64,000 bases of DNA from Escherichia coli (GCF_003991155.1 NZ_CP031293.1); one strand, 5' to 3'; shown: positions 43,591 through 47,073, counted from the first letter of the stretch. The notes: generated from the sequence alone by a model not told the origin. Program-made: numbers and translations.

Positions 43591-43601
43591 TTACTGCGAC
43601 A

Positions 43602-43640
43602 AATTACTGCGAGCTTGCTCGCAGTAATTCATTTCTCTTA
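43602..43640 (+). terminator. Palindromic terminator after gntU
   Basis: aattactgcgagc-ttg-ctcgcagtaatt perfect palindrome followed by T-rich tract. Confidence 0.55.
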
Positions 43641-43729
43641 TCTCCTCTCTTCATCTTTTTGATCTCTCTCGCAAATTTACCTGCTAATAATCCGTTCTAA
43701 TCACTGCCTAAAGATCGCAGGAGATAAAG

Positions 43730-45826
43730 ATGGAAAAGCACGGAGCTGAATTGCTTTTACAGCGGATGTTAGGAAATACCACCGCTACTTTCAGGGAAGG
43801 GCAATGGGAAGCCATAGATGCAGTGGTTAATCAGCGGCGAAAACTGCTGGTTGTACAGCGCACCGGCTGGGGGAAAAGTGCCGTGTACTTCATCGCCAGT
43901 AAAATCTTCCGCGATCGCGGCGCTGGCCCGACAATTATCATCTCTCCTTTGCTTGCCCTGATGCGTAACCAGGTTGCCGCCGCTGAACGGTTAGGTATTA
44001 CGGCTGAAACGTTGAATTCTACAAACAGGGAAGAATGGCAGCGCATTAGCGATAAGTTGCTGCAAGGTGAGGTCGATTGCTTGCTGGTTTCCCCGGAACG
44101 TTTGGCAAACCAGGACTTTATCGAAACGGTTTTATATCCTATAGCCGATCGTATTGGCTTGCTTGTGGTCGACGAGGCGCACTGCATCTCTGATTGGGGC
44201 CACGATTTTCGCCCGGATTACCGACGTATATTAGATATTTTGCGCCAACTGCCTGCGAATACCCCTGTTCTGGGTACAACCGCGACAGCGAATAACCGTG
44301 TTGTTGAGGATATCCGTCAGCAATTGGGTGACATTGTGATTCAGCGTGGAACGCTGGCTCGCGAAAGTTTGGCGCTTGATGCCTTAGTCTTAGGAGAACA
44401 GTCATCCCGTCTGGCATGGTTAGCAACGGTTATCCCTCAGTTTTCCAAATCGGGAATTGTTTATACCCTGACGACTCGCGATGCTGAACTTGTCGCCGAG
44501 TGGTTAAGGAAAAATGGTATCAGTGCATTTGCTTACTACAGCGGCGTGACTTGTGAAGGCGCGGAAGATTCTAATACTGCCAGGGAATATCTGGAGCAGG
44601 CACTGCTGGCAAATAAAATCAAAGTGCTGGTCGCGACGACGGCATTAGGTATGGGGTTTGATAAACCTGATTTAGGTTTCGTCATTCATTATCAGATGCC
44701 GGGGTCTATTGTCGGTTACTACCAACAGGTGGGGCGTGCCGGGCGTGCTATAGATTCCGCAGTTGGCATATTGCTTTGTGGTGGTGAAGACCGCGCTATT
44801 CATCAATTCTTCCGTGAAAGCGCCTTTCCTGCGGAGGCGCAAATTCATGAAATACTCAACGTACTTAGCGAGAATGACGGTCTTACCCTACGAGGCATTG
44901 AACAACGGACGAATCTTCGTTATGGGCAAATAGAAAAAGCACTGAAATTATTGGTAGCGGAAAATCCATCGCCTGTGGTGTATACCGAGAAATTATGGCG
45001 CAGAACTATCGTCAGTTTTTCTCCTGATCATGAACGAATTAACCATTTGATGAATCAGAGAAAAAGTGAGCTGGCAGACGTTGAAAGCTATATCACGACC
45101 AAGGAGTGCAAAATGCAATTTCTGCGCCGTGCACTCGATGAGCCAAGTGCCGAACGTTGTGGTAAATGTAGCAGTTGTCTTCAACATCCGTTATTGTCGC
45201 CCGACATTGATAGCGGCTTACTCCATGCGGCAAATTTATTTATTAAACACGCTGACCTGCCGTTAAATCTCAATAAACAGGTGGCAGCTGGGGCTTTTAC
45301 GCAATACGGATTTAAAGGGAACTTGCCTGCGGGTTTACAAGGATCTACGGGGCGAATCCTTTCTCGTTGGGGAGATTCCGGGTGGGGAAAGCAGGTAGCA
45401 CAGGAGAAAAAAACGGGGCGCTTAAGTGATGAGCTGGTAGAAGCATGTGCGGAAATGGTTTGCCAACGCTGGAATCCGCATCCTGAACCAACCTGGGTAT
45501 GCTGCGTTCCTTCATTAAGGCACCTCGACCTGGTTCCTGATTTTGCCCGGCGACTGGCGGCGAAACTTGGCTTACCTTTTATTGATGCCATTGAAAAAGT
45601 CGTGGACAATCCACCGCAGAAAATGCAGCAAAACCGTTTTCACCAGTGTCAAAATCTCGACGGGGCGTTTGTGATTACCCCTCCTTTGATGCCAGGTCCG
45701 GCGTTGCTGGTTGACGATATCGTGGATTCTGCATGGACGCTGACAGTTCTGACAGCACTGTTACGCAAGGCAGGTTGCCCGACGGTTTATCCTCTTGCCC
45801 TTGCTTCTACCTCGGTAAAAAATTGA
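43730..45826 (+). CDS. RecQ-family SF2 helicase fused to Cys-cluster and C-terminal ComFC-like phosphoribosyltransferase-type domain
   Basis: ORF track 698 aa. Walker A QRTGWGKS, DEAH box VVDEAHCISDWGHDFRPDY (RecQ-type), TATA motif, motif VI QQVGRAGRA, Cys cluster CGKCSSC, C-terminal PRT-like loop ALLVDDIVDSAWT preceded by ComF-like segment. By my recollection not present at this position in K-12. Confidence 0.8.
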   Translation: MEKHGAELLLQRMLGNTTATFREGQWEAIDAVVNQRRKLLVVQRTGWGKSAVYFIASKIFRDRGAGPTIIISPLLALMRNQVAAAERLGITAETLNSTNREEWQRISDKLLQGEVDCLLVSPERLANQDFIETVLYPIADRIGLLVVDEAHCISDWGHDFRPDYRRILDILRQLPANTPVLGTTATANNRVVEDIRQQLGDIVIQRGTLARESLALDALVLGEQSSRLAWLATVIPQFSKSGIVYTLTTRDAELVAEWLRKNGISAFAYYSGVTCEGAEDSNTAREYLEQALLANKIKVLVATTALGMGFDKPDLGFVIHYQMPGSIVGYYQQVGRAGRAIDSAVGILLCGGEDRAIHQFFRESAFPAEAQIHEILNVLSENDGLTLRGIEQRTNLRYGQIEKALKLLVAENPSPVVYTEKLWRRTIVSFSPDHERINHLMNQRKSELADVESYITTKECKMQFLRRALDEPSAERCGKCSSCLQHPLLSPDIDSGLLHAANLFIKHADLPLNLNKQVAAGAFTQYGFKGNLPAGLQGSTGRILSRWGDSGWGKQVAQEKKTGRLSDELVEACAEMVCQRWNPHPEPTWVCCVPSLRHLDLVPDFARRLAAKLGLPFIDAIEKVVDNPPQKMQQNRFHQCQNLDGAFVITPPLMPGPALLVDDIVDSAWTLTVLTALLRKAGCPTVYPLALASTSVKN

Positions 45827-47028
45827 TGAATCTTTCAGCCAATGCACAAGCGACCCTCCTGCTAACCAGCGATTTTTCTCGCGCGGCGGCGAGTGAGTAT
45901 AAACCTCTTAGTAATAGTGAATGGGGGAAGTTTGCATTATGGCTGAAGCACCAACGTATCAGTCCCGCCGATCTTCTGGTGCCGCAACCGCAAGAGAAAC
46001 TTACAGGCTGGAGCGATCCGCGTATTTCTCAGGAGCGTATTCTTGGCTTGCTGGCGCGTGGCCATAGTCTGGCGTTGGCGGTAGATAAGTGGCAACGCGC
46101 CGGTTTATGGATCTTAACCCGCGGAGATGCCGATTATCCCGTTCGCTTGAAAAACCGATTGCGAACGGATGCACCTCCCGTTTTATTTGGCTGCGGGAAT
46201 AAAGCATTACTGCAAGCGGAAGGTATGGCGATTGTTGGCTCGCGAGATGCTCCGACTGCCGATTTGCGCTATACCCAACAACTGGCAGCGAAACTGGCCC
46301 AACAGGGGATTTGCGTTATCTCTGGTGGTGCGCGAGGTATTGATGAATGTGCAATGGCGTCGGCACTGGAGGCCGGGGGAACTGCCGTTGGCGTATTAGC
46401 TGATAGCTTGTTAAAAACGAGTACGTTAGTGAAATGGCGTGAAGGGCTTATAGCAGGCAACCTGGTGTTGATTTCGCCGTTTTACCCAGAGGTACGTTTC
46501 ACCGTCGGCAATGCGATGGCGCGAAATAAATATATTTATTGCCTTGCTGAAAGCGCAATGGTTGTACGTGCGGGAATGACCGGTGGAACGATAACCGGAG
46601 CGATGGAGGCGTTAAAACATCAGTGGCTGCCTGTGCAGGTTAAACCAAATCAGGATGTGCAATCAGCCAATTCACGATTAGTAGAAAATGGGGCGTCATG
46701 GAGTGCTGAACAGGCTGAGAATGTGACGATCAGACTGCCAGACGTTCCTGGGCTGATGTATGACAGAGCACTCCGTAACGCTCAACCAGAATTGTTTTCG
46801 CTGCACGAAGATGACGCAAATTACGCAGTGATGCCCTCGCATACCCCTGTCGATTTTTATCAACTTTTTGTGGCGGAACTGGCGATCCTTGCAAAGGAAT
46901 CGATAAGTATTGAAAGGCTGGCGTCTTGTACTGGTTTAACCATCGAACAAATTAGTGTGTGGCTGAACCGCGCAGAAGAAGAGGGAAGGGTTATCCGATT
47001 GGGCGAAGGTCATTATCAGTTCAGGTAA
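45826..47028 (+). CDS. DprA/Smf-family (SLOG superfamily) protein, paralog of housekeeping DprA
   Basis: ORF track 45733..47028; likely start ATG 45826 overlapping the helicase stop as TGATG (400 aa). Rossmann-type DprA core AIVGSRDAPTADLRYTQQLAAKLAQQGICVISGGARGIDECAMASALEAGG, N-terminal SAM-like region, C-terminal winged-helix-like tail. Confidence 0.8.
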   Translation: MNLSANAQATLLLTSDFSRAAASEYKPLSNSEWGKFALWLKHQRISPADLLVPQPQEKLTGWSDPRISQERILGLLARGHSLALAVDKWQRAGLWILTRGDADYPVRLKNRLRTDAPPVLFGCGNKALLQAEGMAIVGSRDAPTADLRYTQQLAAKLAQQGICVISGGARGIDECAMASALEAGGTAVGVLADSLLKTSTLVKWREGLIAGNLVLISPFYPEVRFTVGNAMARNKYIYCLAESAMVVRAGMTGGTITGAMEALKHQWLPVQVKPNQDVQSANSRLVENGASWSAEQAENVTIRLPDVPGLMYDRALRNAQPELFSLHEDDANYAVMPSHTPVDFYQLFVAELAILAKESISIERLASCTGLTIEQISVWLNRAEEEGRVIRLGEGHYQFR

Positions 47029-47031
47029 TAA

Positions 47032-47067
47032 AACAGGTGCCGCCTCTGGTTGTGTGCAGCACCTGTT
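47032..47067. terminator. Bidirectional hairpin between DprA-like gene and yhgN
   Basis: aacaggtgccgc ... gcagcacctgtt stem (11 of 12 paired) read from sequence. Confidence 0.5.
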
Positions 47068-47073
47068 TGAACC

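Follow-up and report, generated by a model that had tools for sequence, protein, structure and literature searches.

RqlHI, also named PsyrTA, is a toxin-antitoxin system of Escherichia coli whose toxin, RqlH or PsyrT (Sberro, 2013; Millman, 2022), joins a RecQ-like helicase to a C-terminal phosphoribosyltransferase (PRT or PRTase) domain, and it has been catalogued since 2022 as an experimentally verified defence system against phage. A helicase-PRTase fusion was described by Ordonez et al. (2012; PMC3378886), who found a ComF-like, PRTase-like C-domain in mycobacterial RqlH; a tetracysteine zinc domain has been described for RqlH of M. smegmatis. For RqlH of the extraintestinal pathogenic E. 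coli (ExPEC) strain F11, Russell & Mulvey (2015; PMC4670107) called the PRTase domain 'atypical' and constructed mutants of its acidic pair. The subject here is an open reading frame (ORF) at positions 43730-45826 of a 64,000-nucleotide stretch of E. coli DNA (NZ_CP031293.1, GCF_003991155.1), referred to as the window, and in particular the loop of its C-terminal domain in the place where PRTases bind phosphoribosyl pyrophosphate (PRPP). The ORF is RqlH itself, and its loop, which an earlier note had taken to be substituted and more suited to binding than to catalysis, appears from the alignments to be intact.

The published genetics bear directly on this loop. Deletion of the PRTase domain (residues 509-690) abolishes both the growth inhibition and the SOS induction caused by RqlH, and the pocket mutants D663A and DIVD663EVME likewise abolish toxicity, so that mutation of the DD pair in vivo, which the earlier note proposed as a check, was already in the literature in 2015. 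The genotoxicity of RqlH takes the form of SOS induction and filamentation, the PRTase domain is not toxic by itself, and co-precipitation of RqlI, the partner protein, is lost on deletion of residues 509-690 and when RqlH is truncated at residue 509, amino acids 510-698 being required (Russell & Mulvey, 2015; PMC4670107).

Two further relatives provide structural comparisons. ComFC of H. pylori (PDB id: 7P0H) is a small stand-alone competence protein, whereas RqlH is a helicase-fused toxin; a crystal structure of ComFC with PRPP and Mg is available, and mutation T165A, at the equivalent of T670 of RqlH, abolishes nucleotide binding by ComFC. ShosT (PDB ids: 8ZVB, 8ZVD) has an N-terminal pyrophosphatase domain where RqlH has the RecQ helicase, and its loop reads D/E336-G337-N338 (numbering of the published paper) in place of S-A-W in RqlH. 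In crystal structures ShosT is seen with PRPP, a sulfate at the 5'-phosphate site is bound by the main-chain amides of residues 336-338, and the D331A/D332A substitution abolishes toxicity; the protein binds PRPP and not the purines tested. RqlI binds to RqlH through the PRT domain of the latter, but no such binding occurs between ShosA and ShosT. According to a 2025 preprint, ShosT alone among the defence PRTases has been functionally characterised.

Identity of the protein and fold of its C-terminal domain

The ORF is identified as RqlH (PsyrT), the toxin of the E. coli RqlHI/PsyrTA toxin-antitoxin and anti-phage system, because it and the downstream ORF match the PADLOC PsyrT and PsyrA profiles over their full lengths, the residue numbers of the former coincide with those published, the two genes form an operon with overlapping stop and start codons, and the locus between gntU and yhgN is the same. 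The PsyrT profile (PDLC03928) matches amino acids 3-697 at profile positions 5-687 of 689 (E=0, 1061.7 bits), and the PsyrA profile matches amino acids 1-400 of the downstream product at positions 1-397 of 398 (669.5 bits). Residues K49, D148 and D663 stand at their published RqlH positions, and the 'DIVD663' block coincides as well. The N-terminal two thirds of the protein is a RecQ-family helicase of superfamily 2 (SF2), for which the TIGR00614 (recQ_fam) score of 252.8 bits exceeds the cutoff of 219.8, and the RefSeq name of the product (WP_000410855.1) is 'RecQ family ATP-dependent DNA helicase'. Compared with RqlH of strain F11, the protein belongs to the same family and is almost certainly the same orthologue, given 698 amino acids, the D663-I-V-D666 block and a 400-residue partner; there is no material difference between the two, and what is added here consists of family-wide statistics on a DS[R/G/A]WT signature and structural placement beside ComFC. 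The PRTase domain has been characterised before, as part of a known system of toxin-antitoxin and defence type, and is not novel.

Family comparisons used a set of 150 representatives at 50% identity, the same library containing 1636 proteins at E ≤ 0.001. An alignment of 60 domain sequences and the query RqlH domain (A1) was used for modelling in AlphaFold2, which returned the C-terminal domain with a predicted local distance difference test score (pLDDT) of 92.4 and a predicted template modelling score (pTM) of 0.89. A Foldseek search of the PDB with this model places H. pylori ComFC (7p0h) first, followed by adenine PRTases (APRTs), hypoxanthine-guanine-xanthine PRTases (HGXPRTs), orotate PRTase (OPRT) and PurF. 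The figures listed for the structural comparison are 15.1 for ComFC (163 residues aligned), 10.8 for PurF, 9.7 for ShosT with PRPP (8zvb), 9.4 for both APRT and HGXPRT, and 9.3 for PRPP synthetase. The earlier note's assignment of a PRT fold, which it suggested checking by alignment of a predicted model with ComFC and type I PRTases, is borne out, and the model indicates a type I PRT core fold of ComFC-like character. ComFC is the closest structure, and in RqlH a four-cysteine element lies upstream of the domain.

At the level of sequence the relationship emerges with the family profile. The A1 profile matches PRPP synthetases among PDB sequences (E 5.5e-7), and A1 matches E. coli GntX, the ComFC orthologue, with 95% probability over 151 columns (E 3e-8). 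A single-sequence phmmer search of PDB sequences with the RqlH domain gave marginal matches only (best E 0.14), so that the family profile was required, and NCBIfam models gave only sub-threshold matches to the isolated domain, the best being GntX (E 0.007, 15.8 bits against a cutoff of 304). ShosT was absent from the matches listed in HMMER searches of the PDB, both with the single sequence and among the top 60 with the family profile. Similarity of sequence between RqlH and the PRPP synthetases and PRTases is limited to ∼50 residues around the loop.

The PRPP-binding loop

The peptide quoted in the earlier note, LLVDDIVDSAWT, is present as amino acids 659-670 of RqlH, encoded at 45704-45739, within a 13-residue segment (Table 1). 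In the model this region is predicted with high confidence to form a strand (residues 658-665), a loop (666-668) and a helix (669-680), and class I PRPP synthetases and purine PRTases share both this strand-loop-helix geometry and the same 13-residue PRPP motif without gaps. Three independent alignments place the loop without gaps, two of them against PRPP synthetases and the third against E. coli GntX. The aligned portion reads DDIVDSAWT in RqlH, DDVVTTGST in E. coli GntX, DDIITTGTT in H. pylori ComFC, DDIIDTAGT in B. subtilis PRPP synthetase, DDMIDTGGT in the E. coli-type PRPP synthetase, and DDVVSTGST in Thermus APRT.

Four positions differ between the RqlH loop and those of ComFC and GntX, and the TTGxT signature is not kept. 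The description of the small Thr/Gly positions as replaced by D, S, A and W therefore holds against the ComFC template; it does not hold against type I PRTases generally, among which only W669 is unusual. Residues D666, S667 and A668 are ordinary type I PRTase variants, because the loop aligns without gaps to DDIIDTAGT, DDMIDTGGT and DDVVTTGST, and the loop is 'substituted' only in relation to the ComFC/OPRT template TTGxT. The change from T to D at position 666 shifts the loop toward the PRPP synthetase type, D[ST][GA]xT. An Asp at the equivalent position is also typical of the 6-oxopurine PRTases, and both these and the PRPP synthetases are active enzymes. In addition, ALLVDDIVDSAWT fits all 13 positions of PROSITE pattern PS00103 in the form that we take it to have, its length of 13 being confirmed; in this form the pattern is matched by only 33 of 141 family members, since R at position 668 falls outside it.

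Conservation was counted across about 142-145 aligned diverse representatives. The acidic pair is kept, as the earlier note had stated, D662 being present in 145/145 and D663 in 142/145 sequences; the corresponding counts are 118/142 for D666, 141/142 for S667, 140/142 for W669 and 137/142 for T670, and D662, D663, S667, W669 and T670 are each conserved to at least 96%. At position 668, where Gly is classical, most family members have Arg (R 78, G 47, A 8) and the E. coli protein has Ala. The resulting family signature, DD-h-h-D-S-[R/G/A]-W-T, is present in bacteria and in haloarchaea on plasmids, whether or not a DprA-like partner is there. Haloarchaeal and actinobacterial fusions that have no partner still carry an S-[R/G]-W-[T/S] loop, and two haloarchaeal proteins of the RqlH type have N or G at the D666 position. 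Residue 668 was also compared with the presence of an RqlI partner at nine plasmid or replicon loci, a small sample in which no pattern is apparent (G/R/G/R with a partner and R/R/R/G/G without).

W669 is thus the only unusual residue of the loop, and it is a conserved signature of the family. It occupies a free 'x' position of PS00103 at which the PDB PRTase loops of the alignments contain no Trp, PRPP synthetases and purine PRTases having Gly or another small or polar residue there. This residue might stack on an acceptor base, or else touch RqlI or the helicase.

In PRT structures that have been solved, the acidic pair contacts the ribose hydroxyls and Mg2+, and a Ser or Thr together with backbone amides contacts the 5'-phosphate, as is seen for ShosT, with D331 and D332 as its acidic pair, and for ComFC; the positions equivalent to 668 and 669 touch the phosphate through their backbone amides. 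By this comparison all of the side chains that normally contact PRPP, those of D662, D663, S667 and T670, are retained and nearly invariant. Because these side chains are present and positions 668 and 669 would act through the backbone, the loop gives no argument against either PRPP binding or catalysis. The inference that the substitutions make catalysis unlikely is accordingly unsupported, the contacting side chains being nearly invariant and a D-type loop being found in active PRPP synthetases, and 'binding, not catalysis' does not follow from the loop sequence. On sequence grounds the RqlH loop is best described as an intact PRPP or ribose-5-phosphate binding loop in a family-specific version, and not as a degenerate one. 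The contribution is a modest one, namely that this loop is not to be read as degenerate; beyond this, the DS[R/G/A]WT signature, with its near-invariant Trp and variable position 668, offers specific residues worth mutating in biochemical experiments, and the wider question is that of PRPP use by the PRT-domain toxins PsyrT, ShosT, the type III retron effector and Ophion OpnC.

Function of the pocket

The best overall explanation, and one that we consider quite probable, is that the ComFC-like PRT domain of RqlH/PsyrT contains an intact pocket of the PRPP type; its relatives ComFC and ShosT have each been crystallised with PRPP bound. That the pocket works as a ligand site follows from the loss of toxicity in the D663A and DIVD663EVME mutants; catalysis and sensing cannot be told apart from sequence. 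On the model of the solved PRT structures, the ribose hydroxyls and Mg2+ would be held by D662 and D663, and the 5'-phosphate by S667, T670 and the main-chain amides at the N-terminal end of helix 669-680. The helicase part would deliver the PRT domain to DNA. There the pocket would take up PRPP or a 5'-phosphoribosyl nucleotide, which would most likely serve it as the substrate of a transfer to an acceptor. Transfer chemistry at the pocket may then lead to DNA damage, and RqlI would neutralise RqlH by binding or masking the PRT domain.

Several observations weigh against this explanation. Phosphoribosyl transfer has been demonstrated for none of RqlH, ShosT and ComFC, and no acceptor is known. 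The Pfam Pribosyltran match (PF00156) is weak and partial (E 0.0039, 17.0 bits, amino acids 605-684). At the conserved small-residue position 668, Arg is present in over half of the family, outside the PROSITE-type pattern, and the pocket may on this account be suited to another ligand than PRPP. Finally, the ATPase-dead mutants K49A and D148A are more lethal than wild-type RqlH, and D663A rescues both of them, the K49A/D663A double mutant being viable (Russell & Mulvey, 2015; PMC4670107); the hypertoxicity of these helicase-dead mutants is also compatible with a ligand-gated roadblock that involves no chemistry.

A possible, though more doubtful, alternative, and the reading of the earlier note, is that the domain is a ligand sensor and not an enzyme, its pocket binding PRPP or a nucleotide as an allosteric signal that controls the engagement of RqlH with DNA, with toxicity arising from the DNA-bound helicase; PurR, PyrR and a proposal made for ComFC are comparable. 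Against this alternative, the loop retains the full catalytic-type signature including D666, and there is no positive sequence evidence that catalysis has been lost. The residue equivalent to D666 is the general-base Asp of 6-oxopurine PRTases. Moreover, the fusion of PRT and pyrophosphatase domains in ShosT makes sense mainly if pyrophosphate (PPi) is produced.

A more specific form of the transfer chemistry, which must be considered unlikely, would make RqlH a DNA-directed phosphoribosyltransferase, in which the helicase exposes single-stranded DNA and the pocket moves ribose-5-phosphate from PRPP onto a base, with RqlI counteracting the reaction. W669 would stack on the flipped-out base, and the product would be a replication-blocking adduct; RqlI, which has a DprA/SLOG-fold core, would attach to the PRT domain and prevent the adduct from forming, or else remove it as a phosphoribohydrolase would. 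The proposal builds on the speculative scheme shown by Russell & Mulvey (2015; PMC4670107) in their Fig. 10.

It is very improbable that the domain is a degenerate PRT fold that binds no small molecule and is kept only for RqlI to dock on, or as a scaffold. The requirement of amino acids 510-698 for co-immunoprecipitation of RqlI (Russell & Mulvey, 2015; PMC4670107), the weak Pribosyltran match and the frequent Arg at position 668 would all fit such a scaffold, but D662, D663, S667 and T670 hardly vary from phylum to phylum, including lineages that have no RqlI, and the D663A point mutant is expressed and no longer toxic (Russell & Mulvey, 2015; PMC4670107). There is equally little likelihood that a helicase has here been joined to a true ComFC orthologue that acts in DNA uptake and transformation and not as a toxin: ComFC is the best structural match, and the set of helicase, PRT and DprA-like proteins resembles ComFA, ComFC and DprA, a parallel pointed out by Russell & Mulvey (2015; PMC4670107), yet the GntX model scores 15.8 bits against its cutoff of 304, the TTGxT loop is lacking, E. 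coli has a separate gntX, toxin-antitoxin behaviour (PMC4670107) and anti-phage activity are published, and homologues occur inside restriction-modification (R-M) and BREX operons.

Other features of the protein and its locus

The features of the locus are collected in Table 1. The zinc-binding element is matched by Pfam RecQ_Zn_bind at amino acids 443-484 (E 0.0014). A core strand and the loop that follows it are presumed to be the PPi-loop region from where they lie in the PRT fold; residues 589-592 form a strand in the model, followed by a loop and by a helix at 601-613, and P594 is invariant, with W589, S595, L601 and V602 conserved to at least 90%. The ComF-like 'flexible loop' segment, IEKVVDNPPQKMQQNRFHQCQNLDGAFVI, aligned with the GntX segment TQHFLSARLRKRNLKNAF, is the part of the model core with the lowest confidence (means of 81 and 74 for its 10-residue blocks); Q630 is invariant in it, and N635, N642 and G645 are conserved to at least 90%.

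Table 1. Positions of the features of rqlHI and its surroundings, counted from the first nucleotide of the window.
Feature	Position	Strand	Description and basis
perfect 13-bp hairpin, terminator-like	43602..43629	+	after gntU; upstream boundary of the rqlHI insert
rqlH / psyrT	43730..45826	+	698-aa RecQ-like helicase-PRTase toxin; PADLOC, TIGR00614, RefSeq, published residue positions
SF2 helicase core	43796..44749	+	DEAD, aa 23-194 (Pfam PF00270, E 4.9e-25); Helicase_C, aa 239-340 (PF00271, E 4.2e-13)
four-cysteine zinc-binding element	45110..45181	+	C461, C478, C481, C484; directly N-terminal of the PRT domain
ComFC-like type I PRT-fold domain	45251..45823	+	aa 508-698, last ~190 codons of rqlH; interval of the earlier note, 45250-45826
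core strand and following loop, presumed PPi-loop region	45494..45529	+	WVCCVPSLRHLD, aa 589-600
ComF-like 'flexible loop' segment	45590..45676	+	aa 621-649
putative PRPP (ribose-5-phosphate) binding loop	45701..45739	+	ALLVDDIVDSAWT, aa 658-670; model, ungapped alignments, family conservation
rqlI / psyrA	45826..47028	+	400-aa DprA-like antitoxin; PADLOC PsyrA, TIGR00732
hairpin	47031..47068	.	between rqlI and convergent yhgN

The ATG of rqlI at 45826 shares one base with the TGA of rqlH (junction TGATG). RefSeq starts the DprA-like gene at an ATG at 45733, giving 431 amino acids (WP_072652752.1) and a 94-nt overlap with rqlH, and this ATG falls within the codons for A668 and W669 in the PRPP loop. 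RefSeq has probably extended the gene too far, and the true start is probably the ATG at 45826, because the PsyrA profile covers residues 1-400 and the published full-length RqlI has 400 amino acids (PMC4670107), the same length as the ORF. RqlI matches TIGR00732 (dprA) with E 2.5e-29; it also matches LOG-like Rossmann families weakly (TIGR00725, E 5.9e-8; TIGR00730, E 0.001), which would be consistent with the relationship between the DprA and LOG (SLOG) folds.

The pair is flanked by gntR-gntK-gntU upstream and yhgN-asd downstream, yhgN being convergent with rqlI, and the spacers on either side are very short (43591-43729 and 47029-47073). A search beside the insert for direct repeats or scars of mobile elements gave only short chance matches and two terminator-like hairpins, and no integrase was found. 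Among 5426 complete E. coli genomes, 1641 (∼30%) have rqlHI between gntU and yhgN and the remainder match the flanks only; an identical locus is annotated in E. coli chromosomes.

Related genes were also seen outside the chromosomal locus. RqlH-type fusions that have no adjoining DprA-like gene occur at two loci on haloarchaeal plasmids and at three loci on actinobacterial replicons. On Sinorhizobium meliloti pSymB (CP090106.1, 4092-5518 of the examined locus), tblastn finds an RqlI homologue 3' of rqlH that covers residues 3-247 only and may be a truncated or pseudogenised antitoxin; the PLSDB gene table, which is incomplete for this record, has no gene there. Two homologous pairs are embedded in the operons of other defence systems: on an E. 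coli IncF plasmid (NZ_OX030731.1, 1983-5500 of the examined locus) rqlH-rqlI separates the hsdS and hsdR genes of a type I R-M system, and on an Acinetobacter plasmid (NZ_CP090068.1, 2007-5536 of the examined locus) rqlH-rqlI lies between pglX and a DUF262 gene with pglZ, all of a BREX-1 system.
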